This document shows, piece after piece, positions 3,001 to 55,170 of a stretch of DNA of 64,000 nt. Every line of letters starts with the position of its first letter. The stretch's first letter is position 1. The notes beneath the pieces are model-generated. The model saw nothing but the letters and a program-made list of their open reading frames with translations. It searched no databases and had not been told where the DNA came from. The translations under genes were made by a program, and so were the position numbers. The stretch comes from Patescibacteria group bacterium (lineage in GTDB: Bacteria; Patescibacteriota; Patescibacteriia; JBHPGJ01), in contig JBHPGJ010000002.1 of the NCBI GenBank assembly GCA_042570545.1, positions 31,741 through 95,740 on the forward strand. Direction: 5' to 3'.

Positions 3001-4828
3001 CTGCCAAGGGGCATGTATTCTTGATCTGGTTGATGATCCACCAAGTCAAGAGAGTAACGGCACCATTATTACCTTTGGCACTGACTTTACGATGTCTGGA
3101 ACCGGCACGGTGATCGTCTCGGGCAACGATTCTAGAATTGAACCAGACGGCACGGTAGACCAGATCGTCACTACTGGCGGTAAGATCTATGACACCTTTT
3201 ATGTTAATAATACCGGTGCCACTGACGCCGTTGATGACGTCATCATCTCCGGTGCCCTTGATCTAACCACCGATCTAATAATAAACGATGGTGAGCTAGA
3301 CTTAGATGCCAATGATCCGGCTGTTACTATAGAAAAAGATATGACCATCAACTCCGGTGGCGATATATTGCCCTCAGATACAAATGGCATAACCTTTGAC
3401 GGTTCAGCTACGGCCGGTACCTACACTGACTCTAGCTCTGGTGGCCCATTAAACATCGGTGATGTCACAGTAAACAAATCCTCCGGCACTCCGGCCACTG
3501 ACACCGTTACTCTGGCTTCCAGCATGCTAGCCGATACGGTAGTGATTAGTGCCGCCGACACTCTCGACCTGGTCGATTCAGGCTTTACCCTAGAACTAGC
3601 TAATAATGCTGCTACCGGAACAGTACTAACCACTACCGGTACCTTAGATGTTGGAACTAACTCCTTAGTTAAATACTCAGCTATTAATACAGTTGGTCAA
3701 GTAACCGTAGATAACACCGGTTACCACGACATTCAGTTCTCCGGAGCCGAGATCTACGATCTGGGCGGCAACCTGACCACCACTGACGATATTGACGGTA
3801 ACCTGACCATTGATTCTGGCGCCACTCTAGATGTTACCGCTACTAACTACAACATCGATCTGGCCGGTAACTGGACCAACAACGGTGACTTTACTGACCG
3901 GGCTGGTACCGTAACCCTTGACGGAGCCGCTACCCAGACCATGTCCGGACAGATGACTGGTGCCAGTGATCAATTTTATAACTTAAATATTACTAATACC
4001 TCTGGCTCGGCCACTACTTGTGAAGGCGCCTTTACCCCTGGTGTAGACTTCGCGGCGGCTGCTCAAACGGCCAATACTATGGACATCAGTCCCGGACCTA
4101 ACTATGTCCAGTTTCAAGATAGTGCTACCTATACCTTCCAGAACATTGATTGGCAGGGGACGGCTGGCAATCTGGTTTACTTAAGGAATTCTAATTTGAC
4201 CGGCGGAAGCTGGACACTAACTGTAGCCGGCACCCAAGCAGTAACATACGTCAACGTGGCCCGATCAAATGCCACCAGCACCATCGATGCCACCCAGATC
4301 TACAACGAAGACTGTGGTAATACTACAAATTGGGATTTTGATTCTCTTCAGTTCAGTATTACTGATATCGATATAGGCTTTGGATCACTGAGCACTGGCA
4401 TATCCAGATTTGCCACTGGTAACGGTATCGGAGCTGATGGGCCTACGCCAACCAGCGCTCATGACCTGACTGTCCTGACCGGCGCAGAGGGCGGCTATGC
4501 TCTGACTTATTACAGTACCCAGACACTTACTAGCGGTTCTGATGACATTAATGCCGCCACCATAACAGGTGATGGTGACGGAGATCCAGGATCTGAGCAA
4601 TTTGCTATCAGCTTTGCTACTGACGGCGATGCTACTATAGCGGTTCCATATCGTCAGAGTAGCAGTAACTATAAATATGAAACTTCGAGCACGGTTTCCA
4701 TTGCCACGGAGTCAGGGCCAACAGCTCTGGAGACTATTAGTGCGTATTACCTTGGGAATATGTCTACAGTGACAGCCGCCGGCACTTATACTACGACTAT
4801 TATATATGTAACTACCGGTACGTTTTAA
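2..4828 (+). CDS. Giant repetitive surface/adhesin-like protein. It is N-terminally truncated by the window edge. The Thr/Gly/Asn-rich tandem repeats suggest a beta-helix.
   Basis: The frame is open from position 2 through the ORF-track ORF 71-4828, with no stop upstream. The translation shows about four tandem repeats of roughly 265 aa (for example 'TLTSASxTLNNLTLSGVITLAxATHxVSGNLD...'). The C-terminal ~150 aa are homologous to the C-terminus of the next gene. Confidence 0.75.
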   Translation, partial: ANTITTNGDFNNENTFSNSGGTLVMNGAGTLTSNASTLNNLTISGVVTLAAATHTVAGNLDLSSSTITAAGSTVVMTGTSNTVVGGDQTLANFQINPASPGTITLQTSDLTSTGTLNVFADDTLTIDTGRIMTANNMALNGTIDGAGLLDFNQNSAFPSTGTLDADLRLSGTGAQTLPDRTYGGNVEIYNDSASPSRTVTLASGSPVYSGNFTVNATNANDIIVDGATNSPTMDITGSISFPGAGGGTDTITTGTNTWFVGGSADFTNGTFTHTADGTLDMDGSGTLTTASNNIKNLTLSGTIILAAASHTVSGNLDMSSGAVTATGSTVFMNGVTKTIDGGGNTLNNLWFTPAGPTAYTLQNTDLTVGGTLDIGDFAQVNINVNRTLTHSGTLNLNSTGATGGAGRYTYQSSTALPTGGTIGSILRMDSSSNDQSMNARTIGGALEIYNNSASIRTVTLNAGTQDFNSTLSLEAPSSGTLNLTGSGTNPTIDLEGDLSCVAGGATKTITTGTGTWNVAGLVTLTNCTLSATAGNTFNFDSDDAATLTSASETFDNVDISGTLTLANETHTVSGALDLTGSTLTEGTSTVLMTGTANLTGGGETLNDLTIDGTTNTVTMATSNLTVGGTLNVASGDTLTIGDGLTLTHSGATLTLAGTINEGGATTGLLVYQSTTAFPTTGSITADLRMDGASGNQILGARNGANNFGGDVEIYNNSGVARTFTLGTAGAQTLDVAGALTLTASSGTIELKGETWDPTLNVTGALTCDVSAATETITAPDAVATWTFSNNVNLTNCTYTKSAETLVMDTTGTLTSASQTLNNLTLSGVITLAGATHIVSGNLNMTDGTITATGSTVSMGGTSKTITSDGDSLNNLTVTGGSISNADAMTVAGNFTLSAGDFSQHATANVTITGDTILISDGATFTKSGTSGTLILDGISDNQTYQDLSSGAKQNLGSVQIGASPGTTKLKSDFAADDLTIVDGDRLETHGWEVDLVNFFDCQGACILDLVDDPPSQESNGTIITFGTDFTMSGTGTVIVSGNDSRIEPDGTVDQIVTTGGKIYDTFYVNNTGATDAVDDVIISGALDLTTDLIINDGELDLDANDPAVTIEKDMTINSGGDILPSDTNGITFDGSATAGTYTDSSSGGPLNIGDVTVNKSSGTPATDTVTLASSMLADTVVISAADTLDLVDSGFTLELANNAATGTVLTTTGTLDVGTNSLVKYSAINTVGQVTVDNTGYHDIQFSGAEIYDLGGNLTTTDDIDGNLTIDSGATLDVTATNYNIDLAGNWTNNGDFTDRAGTVTLDGAATQTMSGQMTGASDQFYNLNITNTSGSATTCEGAFTPGVDFAAAAQTANTMDISPGPNYVQFQDSATYTFQNIDWQGTAGNLVYLRNSNLTGGSWTLTVAGTQAVTYVNVARSNATSTIDATQIYNEDCGNTTNWDFDSLQFSITDIDIGFGSLSTGISRFATGNGIGADGPTPTSAHDLTVLTGAEGGYALTYYSTQTLTSGSDDINAATITGDGDGDPGSEQFAISFATDGDATIAVPYRQSSSNYKYETSSTVSIATESGPTALETISAYYLGNMSTVTAAGTYTTTIIYVTTGTF
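83..3200 (+). repeat. Protein-level tandem repeats with a period of about 795 nt (about 265 aa), four copies. They are diverged at the DNA level.
   Basis: The recurrent motif block 'GTLTS(N/A)S.TLNNLT(I/L)SG...LA.A.H.V.GNL.' starts near residues 5, 253, 516 and 783 of the translated ORF. Confidence 0.5.
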
Positions 4829-15506: not shown

Positions 15507-15977
15507 ATGTCACTAAAAGATAGAATCGAGGCTGATTATCGTAAAGCCTTTAAAAGTAAACAGACCGAAGTCATGTCAGCTTTGCGCCTGCTTAAAGCAG
15601 CTGTAAAAAATGCGGAAATCGCGAAACGTAAAGATTTTGAAGATGATGAAGTAGAAAAGGTAATTAACCAAGAGGCTAAAAAAGTAAGGGATAGTATCGA
15701 AGCTTACCAACAGGGAAATCGTCAAGATCTGGTCAAGCAAGAAGAAGCTCAACTTAAGGTAATGGAAGACTATCTGCCCGAGCAGTTAAGCCCGGAAGAG
15801 TTAAAGGATATTGTTCACGACGTAATAAATCGATTACAAGCTAGTCGGCCCCAGGATATGGGACGAGTGATGAAAGAGATAATGTCTGTCACCGAGGGAC
15901 AAGCTGACGGTAAGCAAGTAAAAGAACTGGTCCAATCATTTCTAACATCAAATCAGGATAATTCTCAAAACCCATGA
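15507..15977 (+). CDS. GatB/YqeY-domain protein.
   Basis: Matches the YqeY family pattern 'LKDRIEADYRKAFKSKQ...LRLLKAAVKN...LKVMEDYLPEQLSPEEL'. This is the conserved rpsU-yqeY neighbourhood. Confidence 0.8.
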   Translation: MSLKDRIEADYRKAFKSKQTEVMSALRLLKAAVKNAEIAKRKDFEDDEVEKVINQEAKKVRDSIEAYQQGNRQDLVKQEEAQLKVMEDYLPEQLSPEELKDIVHDVINRLQASRPQDMGRVMKEIMSVTEGQADGKQVKELVQSFLTSNQDNSQNP

Positions 15978-18900
15978 GTAAAAGGCGCAAGTCTAACAAG
16001 ACCAACGTCTTAGTTATTATCGCTGCCCTAACCGCTGCAGTTTCAGTTGGTGGATTTTTTAGTCTGGTAAGCGTATCGGCTCAAACCTCATTTTCAATTG
16101 AAGATATTGGCAGCTCGATTGGTCTAGGCTCGGCTGACCTCAAAGATGTAGTTATAAATGTAATTAAGTGGGCGCTGGGTATACTAGCCCTAGCGGCGGT
16201 GGCCATAATGATCTACGGCGGTTTTCTATGGATTACAGCTCGGGGCCGGGAAGAACAAATTGAAAAAGCCAAGAAAGTAATCATTGGCGCCCTGATCGGC
16301 GTGGTCATTGTATTGCTATCGTGGGCAATTGTACTGTTTGTGGAGCGGTTTATATCAGGCAGTACCCAGACGGGGGGTACGGTTTGTACACCGGGCGACC
16401 AGATACCGCCAATACCCGCGACTGCTTGTTTTGTCTGTAATGCCACTGGTACGTCCTGGGTGCCGACAGGTGATCCAGCGTGTATACCAGGTCCGTCAGT
16501 ATTTACTTTGACTGACGTTGAGACTTCTAATAATGGCGATGCTACCGATGTACATCTTTGCAGTAATGCCAACAGTATCTTTAATCATAGACTTAATGCT
16601 CAAACGATCCTTGATGCTGATACCCTGGGCGATCTGGGGATTTATGAAAATCCCAACACACCCGGTGAGATTGAAGTGCTCGGATCTTTCATACCGCTAA
16701 CTAACTCAGCTACTTGGAAACACCAGCTGCATTGTTCAAATGATCGTACTCAATCATGCAATAATGATGCTGATTGTGGCGGTGCGCCAAATACTTGTGA
16801 CAAATTATTTGCAGCCAACACTGACTATGAAGCGCGATTTCCCCAAAGTATAGAAAATTTTTCAGGTGATTTTCTCCAAGCCTGTAGTGCCTTACCCGGC
16901 TGCAGCTTTAATAATATTACTAATAATTTTGAATTTGACTTTCACGTCGGCGTTACCACCGATATAGTGGAACCAACCATTGTCTCGGCTGATCCTATGC
17001 TGCCAGGCAATCCCGGCTACCCCGACCGCACCATTTCTCGATATCCGATCATTGATGTAAGTTTTAATGAACCGATTGATATGACGACGGTAGCTGCTCT
17101 TGATGTGATGGGAGTGGCCCGGCCAATACCGGCTAATGTAAAAATTGAACAATGGGATAATGATCCAGACGCTGGTGGTGCTTATGTGGTCGATGTCGAT
17201 CCAAATATAATTCAAGTTCAGGCCAAGCCGCAAGGCTTTAAACTAAGTTTAGATGGCGGTCATCTATTAGAACCCTTTACCTGGTATAAGATTATTGTTG
17301 ATAATGTTGAGGACCTGTGCGGCAACAGTATGGTAGCCCAAGTTGATTGGAATTTCCAAACTACCGATGCCGTACCCGGTGTGGTTGGTGTTTATCCGCC
17401 GGCTGGCAGCTCAAATGTTTGTCCTGATACTAAAATAGTAGTTACTTTTGGCACCACGATGTTTAATAGCGATGTCACTTTTCAGGTAACTGGAGGGTCA
17501 GTCCCTATAGTGATTACTCTGCCAGCAGCGTCAACAATGTTTCCCGGTCCTTATACTTGGACTGATGGAGGCGGCAATACGATTAGAGTAGTTGATCCAG
17601 GGCCAACGGCTGATAACAATTTCCGGGTTTATGAAGTTACGCCCGGTGTGCCGTTAGATATTAATACTACCTATGACGTGGCAATAACTACTACCCTCCA
17701 AATTGATGTTAACGGCACTACCTTAAGTCATAACTGGCAGTTTGCTACTTCTACACCCGAACTATGTGCTTGCACGCCGTTTGTGGCCACTGTTCAGCCC
17801 AATCAGGGCCCGCGTGGTATGTGTGTATCAATAGTTGGCGAGTGTTTTGACGGCACCGCAGCTCATCCGGCAACGGTTAGCAACGTGGAATTTGACGTCG
17901 ATTATGGCAATCCACCTCCACCAGCCCCTTGGACCTCGGGTGAAGTTACATACAATATTTTATTACCGGATATTATCGGTACCAGTATACCGCTGATAAA
18001 TACCAACGATGGCAATAATCCAATATTCTTTAACGGTGACTGGCCGCGAGCCCGGGTTACTATAGCTTATGCCGACCCTGCATATGGATCGCATAGCTCT
18101 GATCCGGCCACTAATTCCTTCTTTGTCAATTCAGATAATCTGGCTGACGGGCCGTGCTTATTCTCACTAAATCCTGGTGCCGGTATTGCCGGTACCACAG
18201 TTAATGCTAAGGGTATTAGATTTGGTGATCCGCCCCCAGCACAAACAACGGCTGAAATTCACTTTGAGGATGGCTCCGGCGGAGCCAACGCCGGCTGGCT
18301 GCCCGGCGGCTGGTCACAGACCGATATACTAACAAGCGTTCCCGGTTGGGCCATAGATGGCGATGTCTTTGTCCGTAACGACGCCGGTGATTCTAATAAA
18401 ATTTACTTTGATGTCATACCGCCGGCCCCAACAAGTCCAATGGTACTGGGACATTGGCCAATTTGTGCCTCAGCCTGCCTGAATGCCGGTATGGGCGCTG
18501 ATTTTAATCTAAATGTTGAAATGGATCCGACCACGATAGATGGCAATACTATCAACGTCTGGAAATGTACTGATGGACCGACATGTAATGTTTTTGATCC
18601 GATACCAGTAGCCATAACCGTGCCGTCATATGTTTTCAATCCAATAATTCCTATGAACCGGGCTGAGTGGTTTGGTCAAAACGACTTTGATCCTATTGAG
18701 TATTATCGAGTGATTATGAGTAATGGTATTTTAGCTCTGAGCGACGGCACGCCGATCACCAATCTAAATTACGATGATCCAAATAACGCCATCAACGGTC
18801 TGGATAGCTTCAGCTGGATATTCCAAACCGGCGCCTCAGCTTGTGATATAGATACTATTAATACACTGCCTGATGCAGTTACCATGACCTTTGCCAATCA

Positions 18901-21900
18901 GCAGGTTGGTTTTGTCAGTACCCCGTATGGTCCGTCTGATGCCTGCAGCGGCGGCGGTCAAATATTAAATCCCAACAACAACAGCTGGTTCTGGGATGAT
19001 CTGGGTACACCAAACTTTACCGTTAATCCAACCGGTCCTGGCTTTGGTCTAAATCAGACAGTTGTCCAAGCCGTAAACGAAAATCTGGCAGTTGCTCCTG
19101 AACAATTATGTACCGAAGCAGCACGAATAGATCCACAACCGGCCCGGGACTGCTCTGATATTACCATTGATTATGCTCATTGTGTTGATAATCTTGATTG
19201 TCAGGACTATGACGGTATCCCGGCTACAATTGAATGTCCGGCAGCCACTTGTGATGATGTGACAAATCGCTGTAATCCGATCGTTTTTGGCCTGACGCCA
19301 AACAATGGTCCGTTAGGCACCTGGACAAGTGTCAATGGTTGCTATTTAGGCGGTTATCAATCTCCGACTTGCTTTAATCCCACCCAACCCGAACACGGCA
19401 ATCCCTGTAATTTTGATTCCCAATGCGGTATCGGCGGTGAGTGCCGCGGCAGCCGGGTAATATTCCATAATCAGGTTCCAGCCAAGTGGCCAGCGGTTTG
19501 CGGAGCGCCGGGTTCAACTTGGAGCGATACATCCATCATCGTGGAAGTACCGGACAAGGACACACCGCCTGGGGATGATGCTGTTACCGGACCGGTGGAA
19601 GTGTTTAGGTCCATCGATAATTTCTCAGCTATGTCGCCGGCTGACTTCACTGTCAATGCTAATCCGTTAGCGCCGGGCTTGTGCTGGGCGATACCAAATC
19701 AAGGACCAGAGCAAACGCTGGTGACTCTAATAGGGGATAATTTTGGCTTCCCCCGCGATATAGCCAACGACAAGGTCTACTTTTACAGCTCGACAGCTCC
19801 TGGCAATAGAGTTGAAGTAGCATCGTATATTGATTGGCAAAATCAGCAGATTCAAGTACGAGTACCAGCAGGTGCAGAAACTAATTTGGATATAGCTCAT
19901 ATCTGGTATCCCAATGAAGTAGCTGTCTTTAAGAGTTTATTACAGAGCAACCCGGTCAAGTTTGATGTTAATGCTAACGCTTGCGGGGCTACCTGTTCTA
20001 ATGACGCCGAGTGTGTAGCAGTCGGTCCAAATCTCGGCTGTGATGCTACCGGTTGTTGCGGTACGGCGCCTGATGTTGATTTTGTAAATACTTATCCGGG
20101 TATAAATGAAGTTAATGTTTGCCGTAATACATTAGTTACTGTTAGCTTTGATATGGCGATGATCCCCAGTACGTTAAATGCTAATAATATTACATTAGAG
20201 AATCTTACTGCTGGCGGCATTGTTTCACCCACCTCACTTAATCGCGGCAGTCAAGTTATTAAACTTTCCTATGGCTTATTGGATGCCGGCACCGATTACC
20301 GGATTACCGTTACAACCAATGTAGCTAACTCCCAAGGCGTGCATATGCTCAACAATAGGTCTTGGACATTCCAGACTAGGGCCCAAACACCACAAGAATC
20401 TGGTATTTGTAACATAGCGTTTGTAAATGTAACACCTGGTAATCATGATTATACCGCTTTGAATGAAAATATGACGTTCAATGCTCAGGCGCTTGATGCC
20501 ACCGGACAACCCATAATACCTATCCCCGGTGTCTTAGATTGGGCCTGGCTGTGGGAGAGCACTGATACTAATATTGTAAATCTGTTAGGACCCGTAGATA
20601 CTGACACAGTGAATACCGATGCCCTGGCTAATGGCTCGGTCCTGATCAGGGCTAACGCTAATGCCACCGTCGGCTGGGTAGGCACGGTAATCGGCCAGGC
20701 GACAGCTAATGTAAGATTCTGTGAAAATCCCTGGAGCTATACTGATGTACCAGGCTGTGCAATTGGGACGTGTAATGAGAATTATAATTTTACCACCGGT
20801 TATTGTCGTGGTAATGCCCCACCTTTACTGCCGGTACTGGATACCAGCATTCCCAATCGGGGCTGGTTGACGCAAAATGCCGTTCTAAGAAAACAATACT
20901 TGTTCAGGATCCCCAACACTGAGGACGGTATCGGCATACGAGTATTTGCAAATCCGGGACTGTTGTCAGTCCAAGAATGGTATAACCAAGAGGTGCCGAA
21001 TCCCGGAACGATCCAAGCCCTGACGGTAGATGGTTATGACGCAATTCGTGATGGTACCAGTGTCTATGTTGGGGCTACCAACTATACTGCTGCTACAGGG
21101 TTAAATGGTCGCATCTTCTTGTTTTCTTATAATAGCGACGCTGGTCCGGAAACGGTTAATATATTTAATCAATTGTTAGACTATATTAGTTTTAATACTA
21201 ACATTACAACCAGTACCTGTCTGGCCGTGCCAGCGGTACCGGACAAGGTATGTATTGCGCGAGATCTGAAACGGGTAAATGGAGTTAGGACAGTGGCTGG
21301 ACTACTGAATGGCTATCGAGCGGGTGGCCAAGGCGGCGGTGGTAGTAATCTGGTGAAAAATAAGGGTTTTGAAGTCGACGATAGTACCAATTATGATACA
21401 GCTGCCGGCTATGACAATGCCGTGGCAGGCGACGATCGGCCAAATGGCTGGTCAGAACCGCCGGCAACAGGTACACGAGATAGCGTGGTCAAAAGAGGTG
21501 GAGCCTTCTCAGTAAAAATCGAAACTAATGGCAATCAACGTTATGTTTATCAGGATATTCAGATTGAACAAGGTAAGAAATATATCGTCTCGGGCTGGAT
21601 CAGGACCGATCTGGAAATAGTTGGTGGCAGTAAAGCGGCCCTAACAACCGATTGTGTTGATGGCGGTCATAGTGTTAACAATGCCGGTTGTAACTTATAT
21701 CATCCCGCTGGCGTGGGCTTATCTGGTATAAGCGAATGGACTAGACAAAGTTTCATTGTTGAGGCTAATATGCCGACCAGTTCTCGACCCTACCTAAGAG
21801 TTAATTGCTATAACGGTCCCAATGCTGCCAGTACCGGTAAGATCTGGTGTGATGACATATCAGTTGTTGAAGGTACATCAATTTATCCTGATTTGGCTTC

Positions 21901-22276
21901 GGGCAGTTTTATCACCGGTATGACCACCAGTAGCTGGCCGACCTCTTGGCGCGGTAACTTCGCCAATCAACTGGGTTCCAATCAGTTGCCGGTTGATCCC
22001 TTGAATGTGTTTGATAATTGTCCGGTCGGATTTGATCAGACAGCTTGCTGGGATGATTCGATCAAACAATTTATATGCAATCAAGAAAGCCACATTTATG
22101 GTTATAAAACCGATCAAGGCTCCGACTATGACTTGTACGCCAATTTGGAATATGAAGGCTTGGGTGCCTGGACCAATTTTAATACGGCCACCGATATCTG
22201 TGCTGACGCTAGTGTCCAGACAGTTGCGCCAGGATCTCGCTGTGGCTGCTTTGACTATCGATTACAAAGTCCTTAA
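15974..22276 (+). CDS. Giant (2100 aa) Cys-rich extracellular protein with an N-terminal VirB2/TrbC-pilin-like two-helix membrane domain.
   Basis: N-terminus 'VINVIKWALGILALAAVAIMIYGGFLWITARGREEQIEKAKKVIIGALIGVVIVLLSWAIVLFV' has two hydrophobic helices separated by a basic loop. The remainder is Cys-, Gly-, Asp-, Asn- and Pro-rich with Ig-like stretches. The start uses an ATGA overlap with yqeY. Confidence 0.8.
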   Translation: MSKRRKSNKTNVLVIIAALTAAVSVGGFFSLVSVSAQTSFSIEDIGSSIGLGSADLKDVVINVIKWALGILALAAVAIMIYGGFLWITARGREEQIEKAKKVIIGALIGVVIVLLSWAIVLFVERFISGSTQTGGTVCTPGDQIPPIPATACFVCNATGTSWVPTGDPACIPGPSVFTLTDVETSNNGDATDVHLCSNANSIFNHRLNAQTILDADTLGDLGIYENPNTPGEIEVLGSFIPLTNSATWKHQLHCSNDRTQSCNNDADCGGAPNTCDKLFAANTDYEARFPQSIENFSGDFLQACSALPGCSFNNITNNFEFDFHVGVTTDIVEPTIVSADPMLPGNPGYPDRTISRYPIIDVSFNEPIDMTTVAALDVMGVARPIPANVKIEQWDNDPDAGGAYVVDVDPNIIQVQAKPQGFKLSLDGGHLLEPFTWYKIIVDNVEDLCGNSMVAQVDWNFQTTDAVPGVVGVYPPAGSSNVCPDTKIVVTFGTTMFNSDVTFQVTGGSVPIVITLPAASTMFPGPYTWTDGGGNTIRVVDPGPTADNNFRVYEVTPGVPLDINTTYDVAITTTLQIDVNGTTLSHNWQFATSTPELCACTPFVATVQPNQGPRGMCVSIVGECFDGTAAHPATVSNVEFDVDYGNPPPPAPWTSGEVTYNILLPDIIGTSIPLINTNDGNNPIFFNGDWPRARVTIAYADPAYGSHSSDPATNSFFVNSDNLADGPCLFSLNPGAGIAGTTVNAKGIRFGDPPPAQTTAEIHFEDGSGGANAGWLPGGWSQTDILTSVPGWAIDGDVFVRNDAGDSNKIYFDVIPPAPTSPMVLGHWPICASACLNAGMGADFNLNVEMDPTTIDGNTINVWKCTDGPTCNVFDPIPVAITVPSYVFNPIIPMNRAEWFGQNDFDPIEYYRVIMSNGILALSDGTPITNLNYDDPNNAINGLDSFSWIFQTGASACDIDTINTLPDAVTMTFANQQVGFVSTPYGPSDACSGGGQILNPNNNSWFWDDLGTPNFTVNPTGPGFGLNQTVVQAVNENLAVAPEQLCTEAARIDPQPARDCSDITIDYAHCVDNLDCQDYDGIPATIECPAATCDDVTNRCNPIVFGLTPNNGPLGTWTSVNGCYLGGYQSPTCFNPTQPEHGNPCNFDSQCGIGGECRGSRVIFHNQVPAKWPAVCGAPGSTWSDTSIIVEVPDKDTPPGDDAVTGPVEVFRSIDNFSAMSPADFTVNANPLAPGLCWAIPNQGPEQTLVTLIGDNFGFPRDIANDKVYFYSSTAPGNRVEVASYIDWQNQQIQVRVPAGAETNLDIAHIWYPNEVAVFKSLLQSNPVKFDVNANACGATCSNDAECVAVGPNLGCDATGCCGTAPDVDFVNTYPGINEVNVCRNTLVTVSFDMAMIPSTLNANNITLENLTAGGIVSPTSLNRGSQVIKLSYGLLDAGTDYRITVTTNVANSQGVHMLNNRSWTFQTRAQTPQESGICNIAFVNVTPGNHDYTALNENMTFNAQALDATGQPIIPIPGVLDWAWLWESTDTNIVNLLGPVDTDTVNTDALANGSVLIRANANATVGWVGTVIGQATANVRFCENPWSYTDVPGCAIGTCNENYNFTTGYCRGNAPPLLPVLDTSIPNRGWLTQNAVLRKQYLFRIPNTEDGIGIRVFANPGLLSVQEWYNQEVPNPGTIQALTVDGYDAIRDGTSVYVGATNYTAATGLNGRIFLFSYNSDAGPETVNIFNQLLDYISFNTNITTSTCLAVPAVPDKVCIARDLKRVNGVRTVAGLLNGYRAGGQGGGGSNLVKNKGFEVDDSTNYDTAAGYDNAVAGDDRPNGWSEPPATGTRDSVVKRGGAFSVKIETNGNQRYVYQDIQIEQGKKYIVSGWIRTDLEIVGGSKAALTTDCVDGGHSVNNAGCNLYHPAGVGLSGISEWTRQSFIVEANMPTSSRPYLRVNCYNGPNAASTGKIWCDDISVVEGTSIYPDLASGSFITGMTTSSWPTSWRGNFANQLGSNQLPVDPLNVFDNCPVGFDQTACWDDSIKQFICNQESHIYGYKTDQGSDYDLYANLEYEGLGAWTNFNTATDICADASVQTVAPGSRCGCFDYRLQSP

Positions 22277-33998: not shown

Positions 33999-34160
33999 CA
34001 TTTCTTAGTTTTTGTGTTAGTTTTAGCGGTCAAATTTGTCGTTTGACAAACGTGATATAGCTGCGCGGAAACGCTCAGCTTTTCACCATAAATGACAGGA
34101 AAAGAATCAATCGGATAGGTCTGTAGTTTTCGGAAACAACTCCTACGAAAGGGGAATATC

Positions 34161-35504
34161 ATGTTTTTGATCACCCTACTCATACTGACGGCCGCAATGA
34201 CGGTCGCTATGGTGTATGGTACGCGTTTTGTGCTTCGTTTGGGTGGCGTCAGCTTCACTGAGTTGCTTTCGCCTTTCGATAACGAAGACAACCTCGACTG
34301 GTACCTGGTTGGTATCATTCTGATGATCGCCGTAGCGGTAATAGCGGCGTTGTTGATACTGATTCTGTCAGTTTTCAACATCCTGTACAGCGTCATGGGC
34401 ATCATCTTGCTCTGCGCGCTGGTGCTGCCTAACCGAGACAGGTTCTACGTCGCGGTGCCGCCCAACCACGCTGCCTTTATCATGGCCTTCAAGGGCTTGG
34501 TAAAGGTAGCTATCACGCCACGCAACTCAACACAGCCTGGTTTTTATCTGATTGGGTTGTGGCCGCTGTGGCATCTTCATACCTTCGTCATGGAGGATGT
34601 GGAGATAACCAATAGGAACACACCACAGATGGACACGGTATTCAGACGCAAAAAGCAGACTCTGCTGTTCTTGGGAGAGCAAGTAGCCGAGTTTTCTTCC
34701 GGCATCTTGAATACCGGCGACCCCGTTCAAGTGAAGTTGCTGTATGCAATTCACTTTACGATCGACGATGGACGTTCCAGAAAGCCTTTAGAACCCGTCG
34801 ACGGTAGCGAGCCCAAAGAGATTCTGGATCCCTCCAGAAATGTGCATGTTACTGGTGACAGACTCGAGGAGAATGCTCGTCGAGCCGTCTTCAACGTGGA
34901 GAACTTCTATGGCTCCATGCGGGATCTAACCGACATGAGCCTTCGTCCGATCTGCGCCAGAAAGGGATACGAAGATCTTATCACCAAAGATACGACATTC
35001 CTTTCGGAAGAGGGCGACATTCGAAATGATCTTCAGAAGCGCACGGATGCCTGGGGCGTTTTCTTTTTCCAGGTTGGTGTCCAGGAGATCGTCCCGATGG
35101 ATGATGAGGTCACCAAGGCTCTGACCGAAAAGCTGAAAGCCAAGAAGGAGATGGAAGCGATCAAACAGCGAGCCGAGGGTGAGGCCTACCGCGTAGATCA
35201 GGTGTACGGTATTATCCGTAAGCACGGGGGCACTGACATCAAGCAGCTCGAAGTGCTGGAGAAAATGTCTACCTCCGACAACAAGGTCTTCTTCTCACTG
35301 CCTGAGCTGGCACACGCCCTCAGTGGTTTCGGTACTTTTGCCGAAGGTGCTAAGGGTCAGAAGATGGACTGGGCGGATATCCTGCACAAGGCCTTCCACC
35401 TGCCCAAGGACTTGGCTAAGAAGATCGCTGAAGAGATCGAAACGACGGCCAAGGCCGGTGAAACCAAAAAGACAGTCAAAGACGAGGGAGAGCCGACGTC
35501 GTAA
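34161..35504 (+). CDS. SPFH/band-7 (stomatin/flotillin-like) membrane protein, encoded in a compositionally distinct (about 50% GC) island.
   Basis: N-terminal TM helices. The SPFH-like core is 'VQVKLLYAIHFTIDD...WGVFFFQVGVQEIVPMDDEVTKALTEKLKAKKEMEAIKQRAEGEAYRV'. A strong RBS 'AAAGGGGAA' is present. Third codon positions are G/C-rich, unlike the flanks. Confidence 0.65.
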   Translation: MFLITLLILTAAMTVAMVYGTRFVLRLGGVSFTELLSPFDNEDNLDWYLVGIILMIAVAVIAALLILILSVFNILYSVMGIILLCALVLPNRDRFYVAVPPNHAAFIMAFKGLVKVAITPRNSTQPGFYLIGLWPLWHLHTFVMEDVEITNRNTPQMDTVFRRKKQTLLFLGEQVAEFSSGILNTGDPVQVKLLYAIHFTIDDGRSRKPLEPVDGSEPKEILDPSRNVHVTGDRLEENARRAVFNVENFYGSMRDLTDMSLRPICARKGYEDLITKDTTFLSEEGDIRNDLQKRTDAWGVFFFQVGVQEIVPMDDEVTKALTEKLKAKKEMEAIKQRAEGEAYRVDQVYGIIRKHGGTDIKQLEVLEKMSTSDNKVFFSLPELAHALSGFGTFAEGAKGQKMDWADILHKAFHLPKDLAKKIAEEIETTAKAGETKKTVKDEGEPTS

Positions 35505-35537
35505 ATGACGCTGGGACCCTGAAAGGAGCTGAAAAAG

Positions 35538-36893
35538 ATGATAGACCTTATCATTTTGCTAGCGGCCATTACTAGCGTTCCCTTCTTGATGAAGAAGGCG
35601 CTAAAGCCGAAACCGGTCGAAGACGAAGAGACCACGGTAGAGCCGGAATTCAAACTTCCGCTGTGGGTCAAACTGACGACTGCTGGTATGTACGTCATCG
35701 CCCTGATGCAGCAGTACAAGATCATCAAGAAGCATGGCGTGAGCTGGTTCTCAGCCGACCATGTGGTGACCGGACTACTAGTGCTTGGCATCATCTTGAC
35801 CGTTTTGACGGTGGTTCTTCACCAGGTCAAGCTGCAAGCACAGCGTAGCGGCAAGATCGAGGTCAAACGCGGACTGGCTACCGGTCGTCCGGGCATGTTG
35901 AGAGTCGGCGTCTACGCCGCTTTCATCTGGGCGCCACTGGCCCTGTATGTGTTACTGCCAACGGTAGCCCTGAACCAGTTCTTACACTGGTTGTCGGATA
36001 TCGGCTGGGCTGGTCAAGGTATGCTGTTTATGGTCCTGACGTTCATCTACAGCCTGGTATACAGAAAAGCAACAGGCGAGTCGACGGGACCGCTAGTTGG
36101 TGCCATGACCTTTCTGTACTTCTTCCTGCTGATCATTGGCTTCAATCCGACAGAGCTGATGGCGGCGACTACGGAGTTCACACCGGAGCACGTTACCTGG
36201 ATGACCCACCATGGCTGGGGTTGGTGGTTTCTGATCACATTGTCGATCAGTGCCATCTTCTTTCTCTGGTATGGTAAGCGCAAAAAGTGGCATTGGGGCT
36301 ACACCTTTCTCGGTGCTCTGCCTATCTGCCTGGTGCTATTGGGTGGGACCTACGCTCTGAAGATCTTCCCACCTGGTCATCTGCCCAATCACTACACCAA
36401 AGGACAAACGGTGCTGGATAGTCTGCCGCCTGAACTACCTGACGGCGAGGACCGGCTGTTGCGGGTGACCACCTACAACGACCAGAACTACGGTCTGGCC
36501 AAAGCAGGGGATGTACTCAAGTTTGGCGACAGATTTGAGGGCTTTGCCAGGGTATTTACCCACGAGTCTAAAGGCTTAAGGCCTGACGACTGGGAGGTGG
36601 TATCACTGGCCAGCCCGACGCCACTGCCTAAAGACCTGGGCTTTGAAGCCTATCGTTGGCCCTGTCCCAACGACCCGGTCTGTTGGCCGGTGCTGATGGT
36701 CAAGCGTCTGTCCAAAGGGATGAGTCGCAATGACCAAACTCAGTATGAGGCGGTTTGGCCGGGCAAGGTGGTCCGGATCGAGTACGACGGTGAGCTTATA
36801 CTCAGTACCAATAAGCCCGAACCGTTCACTTGGATCTGGAAAGTTCGTTCCTGCTGGATCTTTGACATGAAGCACTATCGTGTAACTGCCTGA
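35538..36893 (+). CDS. Polytopic membrane protein with a C-terminal soluble beta-rich domain. It is the operon partner of the SPFH gene and may be NfeD-like.
   Basis: About eight predicted TM helices, then 'VWPGKVVRIEYDGELILS'. RBS 'AAAGGAG' is present. It has the same elevated GC as the upstream gene. Confidence 0.55.
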   Translation: MIDLIILLAAITSVPFLMKKALKPKPVEDEETTVEPEFKLPLWVKLTTAGMYVIALMQQYKIIKKHGVSWFSADHVVTGLLVLGIILTVLTVVLHQVKLQAQRSGKIEVKRGLATGRPGMLRVGVYAAFIWAPLALYVLLPTVALNQFLHWLSDIGWAGQGMLFMVLTFIYSLVYRKATGESTGPLVGAMTFLYFFLLIIGFNPTELMAATTEFTPEHVTWMTHHGWGWWFLITLSISAIFFLWYGKRKKWHWGYTFLGALPICLVLLGGTYALKIFPPGHLPNHYTKGQTVLDSLPPELPDGEDRLLRVTTYNDQNYGLAKAGDVLKFGDRFEGFARVFTHESKGLRPDDWEVVSLASPTPLPKDLGFEAYRWPCPNDPVCWPVLMVKRLSKGMSRNDQTQYEAVWPGKVVRIEYDGELILSTNKPEPFTWIWKVRSCWIFDMKHYRVTA

Positions 36894-36912
36894 GATCTAG
36901 CGAAGTTTCGAT

Positions 36913-36950
36913 GGGGTCATGATGCGCAAGCGTCGTGACCCCTTTATTTT
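36913..36950 (+). terminator. Rho-independent terminator closing the GC-rich two-gene island.
   Basis: GGGGTCA (36913-36919) ... TGACCCC (36936-36942), followed by TTTATTTT. Confidence 0.7.
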
Positions 36951-37034
36951 ACTTAAATTTTTTCAATCATAAACGGTTTTAGCCAAACTATATAAACAAA
37001 CTACCAGTATCGATATGATGTTGGTTGTTGTTAG

Positions 37035-37112
37035 TGGCGGACCCGACCGGATTCGAACCGGCGATCTTCTCCGTGACAGGGAGACGTGTTAACCGGGCTA
37101 CACTACGGGTCC
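37035..37112 (-). tRNA. tRNA-Asp (anticodon GTC) with an encoded CCA.
   Basis: The reverse complement folds as: acceptor GGACCCG/CGGGTCC, anticodon stem TCTCC/GGAGA with loop CTGTCAC, T-arm GCCGG-TTCGAAT-CCGGT, discriminator G, CCA. Confidence 0.9.
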
Positions 37113-38672: not shown

Positions 38673-39080
38673 TGGTGGAGATGAGGGGTAATACTCCCCT
38701 GTGTAGATGAGATTCCAAATAGTGTGTACACGCTTATTCACCGTTGGGTATGATTAGCTGAGGCTTAAACGATGACAAAAAACTTCAACTAATATCTTCT
38801 GGTGTCATCCGTTATTCACCGACAGAAGATAATCAGTGAATACTTACCTGATAATTGACACCCATGATAGTCTATCAGGTATTGACTATCTGGATGGTTG
38901 TTACGTTTTAGGCAACAACAGAAGCAAGCTTAGGAGCCGCAAAAGCGTTGGCTAATGTGGTCTTAAACTTACTGAATGTAGATTTGACACTTATCGTTTC
39001 CGGAAGGGATTTACAAGTCATCCGGAAGACTTGACGTGCACTGATTTGAAAAGATCATTCTATCGACTATAAACATCCCC
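38673..39080 (-). ncRNA. ssrA: tmRNA (ssrA), about 408 nt. Candidate tag reading frame encodes ANAFAAPKLASVVA then stop (plus-strand 38908-38952).
   Basis: ORF-free 470-bp gap adjacent to smpB. On the minus strand the 5' end is GGGGATG and the 3' end is ...AGGGG-AGTATTA-CCCCT-CATCTCC-A-CCA. The acceptor stem has the G3:U70 wobble and A73, which are tRNA-Ala identity elements. The 5' region 'GGGGATGTTTATAGTCGATAG' parallels the E. coli tmRNA 5' end. An internal short ORF begins GCC-AAC and ends in UAA. Confidence 0.8.
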
Positions 39081-51341: not shown

Positions 51342-54110
51342 ATGGCAGAAGAAGAAATACTACCAGATCTGTTACTACTTGAATGCAATACCTGCAAAGG
51401 TCGGGGCCGCTTAGCCGAGGACAAACAGACAAAAGCGTGTCCCAGTTGTCATGGTCTTGGATTAGCCGCCTGGCTTGATGGACAGTTCTGGCACTGGGGT
51501 AAAACATTTTCCATCCTGCGCATATTAAGCGACCGGGCCGAGCAGCTGGGCCGGGCGGTTATAAATGGCATCTTAATGGCCTTGGCACTGGTCGGGTTTG
51601 CCAGCGGGGTCTGGCAATTTTATCAGCGCTGGCAGGTTGATACTGACGTAGTCGGCTGGCTAAACACTCGCAATACCGGCATGATATTATTTTGGATCGG
51701 TTTGCTTATCGGTTTATATATTTTCTTTCGTTTAGAGCGTGAGCGGTCATCACACCCGGTTATAAAACGCAAAAGTATTGGTAATTTATTAATCCCGCCA
51801 CCGGCTGGATTGACTTATGATGATTACCAAAAAAATAAATTACAGTCACTTGAAATATCTCAGTATCTTGACTGGCAGGCCAAACAATCAGTTGAGAAGG
51901 CCTGGCTACTGGCTCATCGTCTTGATCACCCACAGGTAGAACCAATTCATTTATTGGCCTCACTTTATGATGCTCCGCGGGTTAAAGTTATCATGGCCCG
52001 CTTAGGTGTTGATTCGAGCAAGTTAGTACAAAAAATAAAAAGACGTTTTAGTGAACTGCCAAAAATAAAGGGTGGCGAACCCATTGTGTCCGCTAATGTG
52101 CTGGAGCTTTATTATCAGGCTTTTGCTTTTGCTTATAAAGAAAGGAATCCAGTGATTGATGCTCCAGATCTTTTTCTAGCTGTCACTAAGGTAGAGGCTG
52201 TGGCCAAAGAGATCTTATATGATATGGAGGTTGATGAAAATAAACTGACAAATGTCGTCAAGTGGGTAGATTTGCAGCAGCGTGTAAGCAAACAGTGGCA
52301 ACGTTTTCGGTCCCGAGCGGCTCGCAAACCCAAAGGTGCCATGGATCGGGCCATGCTAGCCCAGGCCACTCCCGTACTTGATCATTATAGTCGCGATTTG
52401 ACCCAGTTGGCCAGGATTGGCGGTTTACCCCTGACCATTGGTCGTGATGATGAAGTGGAAGAGATATTTAGAGTATTAGAGAGTGGCCGCGGTAATGCCT
52501 TAATCGTCGGTGCCGCTGGAGTCGGCAAGGATATGTTGCTTAACGCCATTGCCGACCGGATGGCTTCGGAAGAAGTTCCCGAGAGCCTACAAGATAAAAG
52601 GTTTGTATCACTTAATATTTCTTCACTAGTAGCCGGCGCTGGTGCAGTCGGGGAGCTGGAAGAAAGACTGCATGAACTGCTGGATGAGGTGGTGAGATCG
52701 GGCAATATAATAATAGCAATAGAGAATCTCCACACCATGGTCGGTGTTTCTTCAGCTGGTGGACAAAGCATGGACTTGTCCGAGGTCCTGGCCCAGGCTA
52801 TTGCTACCAATAAGATAATTGTTGTCGGTACATCGACACCAAATGAATTTCGAAAGTATATCGAACCGCGTGGCAGTCTGATGACGCACTTTCAACCGAT
52901 AAGGATCAATGAGGTCGATGAAAATACTTCCATTCTGATATGTGAAACTAAAGTCGGCCCGATAGAATATCATCACCGAGTATTTTTTGCTTATGAAGCG
53001 ATAGAAAGATCGGTCAAATTAGCTAAACGTTATTTGACCGAATTAATGCTGCCAACTTCAGCCATCAATTTAATGGAGGAAGTAGCGGTAATGGTGAAAA
53101 AGACGAAAGGGGTCAATAGCTTTGTAACCGGTGAAGATGTGGCTCAGTTGGTATCACAGCGGGCAAATGTATCCGTCACAAAAATAACTGAGGACGAGAC
53201 GGAAAAACTGCTTAATCTAGAAAATATAATTCACCAGCGTTTAATCGACCAGAATGAGGCTGTCAATGCTGTTGCCTCGGCGCTACGCCGGGCCCGAGCC
53301 GAGCTAAGAGATACCAAAAGGCCAATAGCTAATTTACTGTTCTTAGGTCCAACCGGAGTGGGTAAGACCCAACTGGCTAAAACAGTCGCTGACGTATATT
53401 TTGGTTCCGAAGAAAACATGATCCGTCTGGACATGTCGGAATATCAAGACCAATATTCTATCTACCGGTTGATCGGCACTCCCGAAGGAGCCGGTGGCGG
53501 TTACCTGACCGAAGCCGTCAGACGTAATCCATTTTCACTGGTGCTGCTGGATGAAATTGAAAAAGCCCACCCCGATGTTTTAAACGTATTTTTACAAGTT
53601 ATGGACGATGGTCGTTTGACTGATTCATCAGGACGGACAATAGATTTTACCAACGTTATATTGGTTGCTACCTCAAATGCAGCTACACCAATTATTCAAG
53701 CCCGAGTTAGTGAGGGTGTTGATGTTCAGCATATTAAAGATGAAATGATGACTGGCGGTCTGGCCAAATATTTCCGGCCAGAATTTCTTAACCGTTTTGA
53801 TAACATAGTTGTCTTCAAACCACTCAGCCTAAGCGATATATTTGCAATTGCCAAATTGCTGCTTAAGGACGTAGAGAAACGACTGCAGAAAAAGGGCATT
53901 ATACTTGAGGCGACCGATGGGGCAATAGCTGAGCTGGCCAAAGCCGGTTATGACCCCATTTATGGTGCTCGACCATTACGGCGGGTGATCCAAGAGAGGG
54001 TTGATGATGCGTTAGCTAAACATTTACTTCAGGGCAAGATCGGTCGACGCGATATTGCTGTATTAGAAACCGGTGGTCGGATTACGGTCAAACAAGCCAA
54101 GGAATTATAA
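51342..54110 (+). CDS. Membrane-anchored ClpC/ClpB-like AAA+ protein with an N-terminal CxxC zinc ribbon, two TM helices, Clp_N repeats, a degenerate D1 and a canonical D2.
   Basis: N-terminus 'CNTCKGRGR...CPSCHG'; TM helices around residues 75-125. D1 Walker A reads 'GAAGVGKD' and Walker B 'IIIAIENLHT', both non-canonical. D2 reads 'GPTGVGKT', 'LVLLDEIEKAHPDV' and 'RPEFLNRFD'. Confidence 0.8.
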   Translation: MAEEEILPDLLLLECNTCKGRGRLAEDKQTKACPSCHGLGLAAWLDGQFWHWGKTFSILRILSDRAEQLGRAVINGILMALALVGFASGVWQFYQRWQVDTDVVGWLNTRNTGMILFWIGLLIGLYIFFRLERERSSHPVIKRKSIGNLLIPPPAGLTYDDYQKNKLQSLEISQYLDWQAKQSVEKAWLLAHRLDHPQVEPIHLLASLYDAPRVKVIMARLGVDSSKLVQKIKRRFSELPKIKGGEPIVSANVLELYYQAFAFAYKERNPVIDAPDLFLAVTKVEAVAKEILYDMEVDENKLTNVVKWVDLQQRVSKQWQRFRSRAARKPKGAMDRAMLAQATPVLDHYSRDLTQLARIGGLPLTIGRDDEVEEIFRVLESGRGNALIVGAAGVGKDMLLNAIADRMASEEVPESLQDKRFVSLNISSLVAGAGAVGELEERLHELLDEVVRSGNIIIAIENLHTMVGVSSAGGQSMDLSEVLAQAIATNKIIVVGTSTPNEFRKYIEPRGSLMTHFQPIRINEVDENTSILICETKVGPIEYHHRVFFAYEAIERSVKLAKRYLTELMLPTSAINLMEEVAVMVKKTKGVNSFVTGEDVAQLVSQRANVSVTKITEDETEKLLNLENIIHQRLIDQNEAVNAVASALRRARAELRDTKRPIANLLFLGPTGVGKTQLAKTVADVYFGSEENMIRLDMSEYQDQYSIYRLIGTPEGAGGGYLTEAVRRNPFSLVLLDEIEKAHPDVLNVFLQVMDDGRLTDSSGRTIDFTNVILVATSNAATPIIQARVSEGVDVQHIKDEMMTGGLAKYFRPEFLNRFDNIVVFKPLSLSDIFAIAKLLLKDVEKRLQKKGIILEATDGAIAELAKAGYDPIYGARPLRRVIQERVDDALAKHLLQGKIGRRDIAVLETGGRITVKQAKEL

Positions 54111-54136
54111 AAGAGCAGACCGATCTGATCTGCTCA
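54105..54136 (-). terminator. Hairpin terminator between the convergent Clp-like and Gam-like genes; the T-tract is on the minus-strand side.
   Basis: GAGCAGA (54114-54120) ... TCTGCTC (54130-54136); the minus-strand reading gives the stem followed by TTTTATAA. Confidence 0.5.
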
Positions 54137-54162
54137 GTAAGAAACTATTAGCGGACCTTGGC

Positions 54163-54708
54163 TCAGGTCAGCTTTTTCAGCTTGTCTACGCCGGCGGCGA
54201 TCTCAGCGTCGGTTTTGTCTGGCTTGACGAAGAATTCTTCGTGCTGACCAATCTTAACACCTTTGACTTGGCCAGCCGCCCCCGGCTCCTTGAGCATGGC
54301 CTCCTTATCGACCGTTTTCTTGACTCGGATGAAGCGGGTAAGACGTTTTTCCCGGAGCTGTTTCAGGACAGCGTCAACATTGCGGAGGGTTACCGCCGGA
54401 GGTGTTAAACGCCAGCCGAAAGTGCCAACCGGCAGATCAACCGATTTCTTCTTATCGCTATCGGTAAGCTCAGTACGGTTGGCTTGAGCAAAAGCAAACA
54501 AACCAGTCACCAGATCGTCGATCCGCCTTTGCCGCACTTGCACTTTTTCGGCCGCCTCTTCTTTCAACCGGTCCAGTCTGGAGTTGAGTCGGGTGTTGAC
54601 CGCATCAATAGCACGTTGTTCGACGGCAATGTCGGCGATAAATTTGGCGGCGGCGGCTAGATCCTGCGGTACAGCAACTACTGATCTTTTCAGCGTTTTC
54701 TTAGTCAT
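54163..54708 (-). CDS. Bacteriophage Mu Gam-like DNA-end-binding / host-nuclease inhibitor protein.
   Basis: 'AQANRTELTDSDKKKSVDLPVGTFGWRLTPPAVTLRNVDAVLKQLREKRLTRFIRVKKTVDKEAMLKEP' closely parallels the Mu Gam core '...ANRDELT...SWRVRPPSVSIRGMDAVMETLERLGLQRFIRTKQEINKEAILLEP', which is recalled from memory. RBS AAGGGGG is present. Local GC is about 55%. Confidence 0.75.
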   Translation of the reverse strand: MTKKTLKRSVVAVPQDLAAAAKFIADIAVEQRAIDAVNTRLNSRLDRLKEEAAEKVQVRQRRIDDLVTGLFAFAQANRTELTDSDKKKSVDLPVGTFGWRLTPPAVTLRNVDAVLKQLREKRLTRFIRVKKTVDKEAMLKEPGAAGQVKGVKIGQHEEFFVKPDKTDAEIAAGVDKLKKLT

Positions 54709-54802
54709 GACAAATCCCCCTTGAGCTATGTGACAGAACGCGAATTTATTTGAATTTTCATTATTCTTTTAGCAGTTATATAGATTGATGTCAACTCAAG
54801 TC

Positions 54803-54831
54803 TTGACTTATTATAAAAATTGAATTATCAT
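54803..54831 (+). promoter_or_regulatory. Sigma70-like promoter (TTGACT, 17-nt spacer, TATCAT) with an overlapping inverted repeat (GTCAAC..GTCTTGAC), in the divergent Gam / small-ORF intergenic region.
   Basis: ttgact at 54803-54808; tatcat at 54826-54831; inverted repeat 'gtcaactcaagtcttgac' at 54790-54807. Confidence 0.4.
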
Positions 54832-54921
54832 ATCTACTCACATAGTCACTTGGTATGAATACGAGGCGCTTTGATTTGCTTAAGCGGTTGACGTTTGTCT
54901 CACCCTCGAGGAGGATTTCTA

Positions 54922-55119
54922 ATGTACGATATGCCCCACCGTACCTGTGTAGGCTGCGGACACATCAGGCCGGCTTCCAGTCCTGACACCTTCCATTGTT
55001 TACTGATAACTGCCGGCTCCAATTGTGTGTTCGGCAAAGACAAAGACGTCGCCACTGCGGAACTCAGTCAGATCAAACCGGGTAACCGTGTCGACCGAAG
55101 CGAAGCCACCAATGGCTAG
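54922..55119 (+). CDS. Small (65 aa) Cys-rich hypothetical protein, possibly a zinc-ribbon; divergent from the Gam-like gene.
   Basis: Perfect SD GAGGAGG 7 nt upstream of the ATG; 'CVGCGH...HCLLITAGSNC'; followed by a terminator. Confidence 0.45.
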   Translation: MYDMPHRTCVGCGHIRPASSPDTFHCLLITAGSNCVFGKDKDVATAELSQIKPGNRVDRSEATNG

Positions 55120-55132
55120 CACGATCATTATG

Positions 55133-55170
55133 ACCATGCTGTGACATCTCGCAGCATGGTTTATCTTATT
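55133..55170 (+). terminator. Rho-independent terminator.
   Basis: ACCATGCTG (55133-55141) ... CAGCATGGT (55152-55160), followed by TTATCTTATT. Confidence 0.6.

Follow-up and report, generated by a model that had tools for sequence, protein, structure and literature searches.

A 64,000-nucleotide stretch of DNA from a Patescibacteria (Candidate Phyla Radiation, CPR) bacterium (GenBank assembly GCA_042570545.1, contig JBHPGJ010000002.1, positions 31,741 to 95,740 of the forward strand), called the window in the following, contains at positions 34161-36942 a block that we interpret as a self-contained two-gene operon, horizontally and apparently recently acquired by this organism, with the first gene (gene A) encoding an SPFH scaffold protein. 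We estimate the probability of this reading at about 80%. A foreign origin of this island had already been proposed in a first-pass annotation of the DNA and is borne out by codon usage, tetranucleotides, Shine-Dalgarno (SD) sites, the lack of homologues of both encoded proteins in the databases searched and the lack of a copy at the loci fetched from relatives. The annotation had offered either a decayed island at a tRNA gene or a recent transfer of an SPFH pair; we retain the recent transfer, since the GC content at third codon positions (GC3) shows no amelioration and the SD sites have been kept, whereas the tRNA-island part did not hold. The block consists of the following elements:

34161..35504, + strand: gene A, 447 aa, divergent SPFH/Band-7 (stomatin/HflK-like) membrane protein
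35538..36893, + strand: gene B, 451 aa, ORFan polytopic membrane protein
34149..34154, + strand: SD-like site of gene A, AAGGGG, 6 nt before the ATG, duplex energy -7.8 kcal/mol
35523..35528, + strand: SD site of gene B, AAGGAG, 9 nt before the ATG, duplex energy -7.9 kcal/mol
36913..36952, + strand: intrinsic terminator of A-B, 13-bp stem (36913-36942) with 8 GC pairs, 4-nt loop and T-tract

Composition and translation signals of the block

The segment 34161-36893 has a GC content of 53.1%, which is the highest value of all 2.7-kb segments in the GC profile of the 64 kb, compared with 42.5% for the whole window and 42.0% if the island is left out. The GC contrast described in the first-pass annotation was therefore confirmed for both genes (A 52.0%, B 54.1%), whereas its background value of 40% has to be corrected to 42%. 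The described G/C bias at third codon positions was found as well, with a GC3 of 0.654 in A (z = 6.8) and 0.673 in B (z = 7.2), compared with a mean of 0.373 (sd 0.042, maximum 0.482) in the 47 other genes of the window, which form the comparison set for all gene statistics. At the first and second codon positions both genes lie inside the host range (GC1/GC2 of 0.55/0.35 in A and 0.55/0.41 in B), which indicates that the deviation is caused by codon choice and not by an amino-acid signal.

Windowed GC and codon usage, the two measures by which the island was to be checked according to the annotation, both set it apart, as the GC maximum of the window and with a relative synonymous codon usage (RSCU) that is uncorrelated with the pooled host genes (r = -0.12 for A and 0.06 for B, compared with 0.32-0.89 for each host gene). 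A and B resemble each other (r = 0.70), and the correlation of host genes with A+B is at most 0.30. Furthermore, the base-composition-normalised tetranucleotide signature of the island correlates with that of the host with r = 0.33 only, whereas all host segments of the same size reach at least 0.70. In a cumulative GC walk, the compositional block extends over 34184-36942; it begins with the start of A and ends at the final base of the terminator stem. This terminator was predicted correctly in the first-pass annotation as a strong signal that ends the island: the fold has an energy of -26.9 kcal/mol (z = -5.0), none of 200 shuffled sequences was as good, and its stem forms the right compositional edge. 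The two genes are separated by a spacer of 33 nt, which indicates that A and B belong to one operon.

To score SD sites, the 19 nt before 51 start codons were evaluated by their duplex energy against the anti-SD sequence; the 3' end of the 16S rRNA, which would show the anti-SD of the host itself, lies outside the window. The four strongest pairings belong to A, B and both open reading frames (ORFs) of a second islet of foreign appearance, which is described below. The ribosome-binding sites of A and B had been called canonical GGAGG-type sites, and they are indeed SD-like, whereas a literal GGAGG is found in neither of them (A = AAAGGGGA, B = AAAGGAG). The host starts (e.g., 37932 rplT, 38133 rpmI, 39649 argS, 46199 and 56046) have a median duplex energy of +0.2 kcal/mol, and values of -6 kcal/mol or lower occur in 4/47, which is no more than the 7.8% among random 19-mers from the window, so that SD sites are not enriched. 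Even rplT, rpmI and argS of the host are without an SD site. Many host starts are located 5-15 nt after boxes similar to TATAAT or TATACT, which suggests that host mRNAs in the window are leaderless or have very short leaders.

As a separate observation, two giant ORFs at 71-4828 (1585 aa) and 15974-22276 (2100 aa) also show a raised GC content of 50% and 47%, respectively. Codon position 2 accounts for most of the rise (GC2 0.53 and 0.47), and the RSCU of both ORFs correlates with the host (r = 0.63 and 0.89). In view of this host-like codon usage, we attribute it to amino-acid composition and not to foreign DNA.

The SPFH protein A and the membrane protein B

The SPFH-like character of the first gene, as stated in the first-pass annotation, is confirmed by a match to Pfam Band_7 (PF01145) above the gathering score (E = 3.2e-9, 37.5 bits, gathering 23.6; 38.9 bits for the soluble part alone) and by a match of residues 235-374, including the Ala/Glu-rich helix, to stomatin chains in the PDB (E = 3e-4). 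The best named match in NCBIfam is HflK and is weak (E = 4e-5, 23 bits, cut-off 159). The SPFH region is preceded by N-terminal hydrophobic segments at about 1-24 and 48-90 according to hydropathy, where AlphaFold2 (AF2) predicts helices at 2-27 and 42-88; this is the sole part of the model with a confidence score (pLDDT) of 70-79. Read by eye, residues ~95-235 with their PGF motif and beta-strand pattern are apparently the first half of the SPFH domain with an insertion. The C-terminus is helical and rich in Ala, Glu and Lys; the stretch at about 315-340 aligns with the stomatin helix, and the AF2 confidence there is below 50. The SPFH domain is probably located inside the cell; the loops of A carry too few charges to fix its orientation. 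A word-indexed search of 5.8 billion protein clusters (E <= 1e-3) returned only A itself.

Protein B was described in the first-pass annotation as an eight-helix membrane protein with a beta-rich C-terminal domain, and hydropathy together with the AF2 helices agrees with eight transmembrane (TM) segments (about 2-18, 43-63, 76-98, 121-145, 157-177, 184-203, 227-246 and 253-275) and a beta-containing C-terminal region. The C-terminal domain comprises 176 aa with 3 Cys, 7 Trp and 17 Pro. Counting Lys and Arg per loop gave 5, 5, 0 and 4 for the odd and 2, 0 and 0 for the even loops, and loop 5 has 2 when R176/K177 at the end of TM5 are counted in. Following the positive-inside rule, both the N-terminus and the C-terminal domain of B are predicted to be extracytoplasmic.

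B had no family in Pfam, NCBIfam, PHROG or PADLOC, where only sub-threshold matches appeared, and no matching PDB chain by sequence. The word-indexed search of the 5.8 billion clusters found only B, and a full phmmer search against 1.84 billion representatives found B itself and one 28-aa match that was rejected. Therefore, we classify B as an ORFan. The rejected match was P0003, an Ig-like repeat protein in which the 28-aa motif is repeated eight times, so that the score is inflated. A second candidate relationship concerned DUF4131, the N-terminal TM and OB-fold domain of ComEC. Residues 225-326 of B (window 36207-36515) match this domain with E = 8e-4 and 19.6 bits (cut-off 31.6); a BLASTP comparison with the ComEC gene 3 kb upstream gave E >= 0.47, and the match is probably TM noise. 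The suggestion that B could be an NfeD-like partner of A is not supported, as neither B nor its isolated C-terminal 171 aa matches NfeD (PF01957) at E up to 10 and an extracytoplasmic location is predicted for the C-terminal domain. The single-sequence AF2 models are unusable (mean pLDDT 44.5 for B and 45.0 for A); from residue 271 of B on, the pLDDT is 27-46 in 10-residue blocks, which is too poor to judge the fold.

Other SPFH proteins, namely stomatin, HflK/C and flotillin, oligomerise into a ring or cage at the membrane. A is probably a membrane-anchored SPFH scaffold as well, and on the model of these proteins it is expected to surround or regulate a client in the membrane, for which the eight-helix protein B from the same operon is the obvious candidate. 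The operon structure is the sole basis on which we pair A with B, and on which a function in protecting the envelope or in tolerating membrane stress may be proposed. It is known that SPFH genes and their operon partners are notorious for lateral transfer and typically have subtle, stress-related phenotypes (PMC2636767, PMC13086221).

The arrangement resembles the SPFH-NfeD operons (PH1511/PH1510 in P. horikoshii, QmcA-YbbJ in E. coli, FloT-YuaF/NfeD2 in B. subtilis) in the combination of an anchored SPFH protein with a membrane partner that ends in a beta-containing soluble domain; lateral movement of such operons is well known (PMC2636767, PMC4208085). In contrast to NfeD proteins, which have a few TM segments, B has eight, carries no NfeD or OB-fold sequence signature and has a C-terminal domain that is predicted to be outside; A differs by three N-terminal hydrophobic helices and by a match to half of the SPFH domain. 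HflK/HflC-FtsH and other assemblies of an SPFH cage with its client share the expected principle, an SPFH cage around a polytopic client, whereas here a single SPFH gene instead of a pair is present and B contains no protease, AAA or other recognisable domain.

A second islet and the possible source of the operon

The composition of the operon points to a donor with moderate GC content (GC3 about 0.65-0.67, from which we infer a genomic GC of about 52-55%) that makes use of SD sites. A second islet at 54110-55160, located 17 kb from the island and bordered by hairpins at both sides, contains two divergent ORFs:

54163..54708, - strand: Mu Gam-like gene, Pfam Phage_Mu_Gam E = 2e-33, GC3 0.577 (z = 4.9), SD -10.5 kcal/mol
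54922..55119, + strand: 65-aa ORF, divergent from Gam, GGAGGA SD with -11.8 kcal/mol (the strongest in the window), CxxC, GC3 0.606

The 65-aa CxxC ORF belongs to no Pfam family, and neither another phage gene nor a tRNA gene was found near the islet. In its best-matching segment the Gam protein shares 34-44% identity with Gam proteins of mostly GC-rich IMG/VR contigs, and about 38% with those of Mu-like Pseudomonas phages. The RSCU of the Gam gene correlates with that of A+B with r = 0.68, compared with at most 0.30 for host genes. We considered a common donor of island and islet, which is suggested by this codon usage and is not supported by the tetranucleotides, as the correlation between island and islet (r = 0.41) stays within the range of host segments, which reach up to 0.43 against the island. 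A 9-mer common to the upstream regions of the island and the Gam islet is at chance level. Taken together, several pieces of about gene size have entered this genome from sources that use SD sites and have a higher GC content, and at least one of these pieces is phage-related.

It is conceivable, and compatible with the acquisition proposed above, that A-B is a moron of a phage or mobile element which serves in membrane superinfection exclusion, abortive infection or envelope protection and stems from the same gene pool as the Gam islet. We regard this special case of acquisition as possible, with the odds clearly against it. Genes from the pool of phages and mobile elements are typically ORFans with a foreign composition, the Gam islet has a similar codon usage and strong SD sites, and among the exclusively weak PHROG matches the best one is to phrog_200 (E = 3e-4). 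On the other hand, tblastn with A and B found no match in 50,697 phage records, 72,556 plasmids and IMG/VR, the PADLOC defence models contain no family for either protein at E up to 1, and the tetranucleotide similarity to the islet is no better than that of the best host segments. Still more speculative is the idea that A and B represent a new type of SPFH-client membrane module that has been sampled here for the first time. It would stem from an essentially unsampled mobile pool, for example phages or other elements of CPR bacteria or of the cells that host these bacteria, B would found a new family of eight-helix proteins with an external domain, and the pair would serve in envelope-level exclusion or abortive infection, with SD-led expression in a bacterium whose own genes do without SD sites; we consider this rather improbable.

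Insertion site, related loci and alternative explanations

Two further features border the island:

34059..34084, + strand: hairpin with GAAA loop followed by TTTTC; fold of 34030-34095 -21.3 kcal/mol, z = -3.9
37035..37112, - strand: tRNA-Asp(GTC), 3' end at 37035, detected by ARAGORN and with 67.2 bits by Rfam, convergent with the island

The hairpin is likely the terminator of the upstream host genes for ComEC and its metallo-beta-lactamase (MBL) part, and as a host terminator it would place the left recombination junction between about 34085 and 34148. Just before it, at 34040-34052 and thus also upstream of A, lies a perfect 6-1-6 palindrome (CGTTTGACAAACG), which could be an operator or part of a hairpin. 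The left flank is formed by genes for HtrA, PrfB, ComEC (DUF4131 + Competence) and the separate ComEC-type MBL gene, which ends at 33998; on the right side follow tRNA-Asp, VanZ, rplT, rpmI, infC, tmRNA, smpB and argS. The landing point of the operon would be the gap between the ComEC/MBL terminator of the host and the convergent tRNA-Asp. Most likely, a fragment of about gene size was inserted by illegitimate recombination, for instance following the uptake of DNA or its delivery by a phage; a tRNA-targeting integrase was probably not involved. In Patescibacteria, genomic islands occur frequently, as do transfers of single genes, and competence is one proposed route (PMC12455944).

In related Patescibacteria the fetched loci have a GC content of 34-42%, so that a low GC content is the state of the clade. 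The nearest MBL homologues are 53-57% identical. Four of the loci (L002, L004, L006 and L007) keep the order FtsA-FtsZ-HtrA-PrfB-...-ComEC-...-MBL and continue downstream of MBL with a Y1_Tnp-like gene, YdjM and DsbA-type genes; A, B, tRNA-Asp and VanZ are not present at the MBL locus of these four. The Y1_Tnp-like gene, which directly follows MBL in the relatives, is not found in our window. On the other side of the island, rplT-(rpmI)-infC-smpB is located beside argS in 13 of the 80 ArgS-anchored loci that were fetched. At rplT none of these 13 loci has tRNA-Asp, A or B, and a tRNA-Asp is lacking in every fetched locus; in the closest ArgS-anchored locus (L025), VanZ is located beside rplT, too. 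The exact tRNA-Asp sequence was not found in metagenome contigs, and a contig scan with the flanking MBL protein returned only an Acidobacteria locus with 27% identity. None of the genes that border the conserved blocks in relatives is present in the window. Therefore, the island and the tRNA gene are located on a lineage-specific breakpoint of gene order, which is consistent with insertion or rearrangement.

The position beside tRNA-Asp had led the first-pass annotation to regard the tRNA gene as the integration site. Its foreign composition and its position at the 3' side of a tRNA gene, a classic target, are indeed features that the block shares with tRNA-associated integrative islands; an integrase-type island that later lost its integrase, its att repeats and all cargo but the SPFH operon could account for both. 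We consider such a decayed island unlikely. The island had been placed directly at the 3' end of the tRNA, whereas the end of the terminator stem and the tRNA 3' end are separated by 92 nt of AT-rich, host-like DNA. Between the MBL gene and the tRNA gene, A and B are the only genes, and neither of them is a recombinase; no integrase or mobility gene was found between 33998 and 37171 or among the adjacent genes (MBL, VanZ, rplT), so that our searches agree with the annotation, which had likewise seen no integrase, direct repeats or mobility genes. The partial tRNA-Asp repeat that the annotation had envisaged near 34000 was not found, as the window contains the 25-nt 3' part of the tRNA a single time, also when up to three mismatches are allowed. 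The best alignments between the two junctions reach scores of 12-15 and thus stay within shuffled sequences (mean 11.5, maximum 16). Furthermore, the foreign composition spans exactly one transcription unit, the relatives have no tRNA-Asp at this position, and no tRNA gene was found near the islet of similar composition at 54.1-55.2 kb. In comparison with known tRNA-associated islands, the block is also small (2.8 kb, two genes). The adjacency is a positional fact and not mechanistic evidence, and the tRNA is not demonstrated to be part of the island.

An assembly chimera or contaminant, i.e., a fragment of higher GC content misjoined into a Patescibacteria contig, would fit to a metagenome-type assembly, the abrupt shift in composition and the lack of the segment in any other genome. 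This explanation requires two independent false joins within one contig of 105 kb, both of them intergenic and framing exactly a complete operon from the SD site to the terminator. The junctions share no repeat longer than expected by chance, the host genes at both flanks are intact, and a second, similarly framed islet follows 17 kb away. The caution expressed in the first-pass annotation is justified insofar as sequencing reads are needed for a formal exclusion; a chimera is very unlikely, as a complete transcription unit sits in an intergenic gap of a single contig, with intact host genes and DNA of host type to its left and right. A native, ancestral gene pair with high GC3 due to selection or local mutation bias, for which the host-like GC1 and GC2 and a strong deviation at third positions only could be put forward, is hardly credible given that highly expressed ribosomal-protein and translation-factor genes of the host remain at a GC3 of 0.37-0.39, that the SD sites are missing from the other genes of the window and the tetranucleotide signature deviates, and that protein databases and the relatives' loci fetched contain no orthologue.

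Several points weigh against the horizontal acquisition of an operon for an SPFH scaffold and its client as favoured here. Since neither protein has a homologue, the sequence searches with which the donor lineage was to be traced gave none and no tree can be presented; the foreign call comes from composition, signals and absence from relatives, not from phylogeny. The closest relatives are at most 57% identical and the gene order is broken at the junction, so that an empty site cannot be shown. A sigma-70-type promoter was sought upstream of A and not found. The Band_7 match of A covers the C-terminal half of the domain only (residues 237-342 on profile positions 72-176 of 176), and the AF2 models with a pLDDT of about 45 give no structural support for a complex of A and B. 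In addition, the soluble domain of B is predicted outside and the SPFH domain of A probably lies inside, which would not fit a contact of the NfeD type.

With regard to known transfers, the acquired operon resembles acquired regions in other Patescibacteria (PMC12455944), which are also small foreign segments in streamlined, ComEC-encoding CPR genomes with donors that are often uncaptured, and it differs from them by a cargo that has no homologue and carries SD signals which the other genes of the window lack. It represents a well-delimited gain of cassette size in a streamlined CPR genome, with foreign codon usage and translation signals and a location beside DNA-uptake genes. With it, the accessory repertoire of the Patescibacteria gains a highly divergent SPFH protein and a membrane protein that is an ORFan. 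Furthermore, the operon is a natural test for the fate of SD-led foreign genes in a host with no SD in its window genes. Unusual are the complete absence of homologues of A as well as of B and the difference in translation signals between island and host; in other respects the island is a good but ordinary example of what is known. Both SPFH operons and islands in Patescibacteria have been documented before to be transferred laterally, and our knowledge of SPFH biology and of island integration is unchanged by this case.

Two minor observations concern the flanking genes. ComEC is split in this genome (31625-33998) into a gene for DUF4131 and Competence and a separate MBL gene, which overlap by 11 nt. 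In the four relatives with a conserved MBL locus, the ComEC halves are further apart, with glycolytic genes (PFK or FBPase, and aldolase) in between. As the halves are separate there too, the split is conserved in the clade. To the right of the island, the following RNA gene was identified:

38673-39080, - strand: tmRNA, between infC and smpB, 72.8 bits in Rfam, not called by ARAGORN

In the 13 related loci that keep the rplT-argS block, ARAGORN calls a tmRNA within this block in eight.

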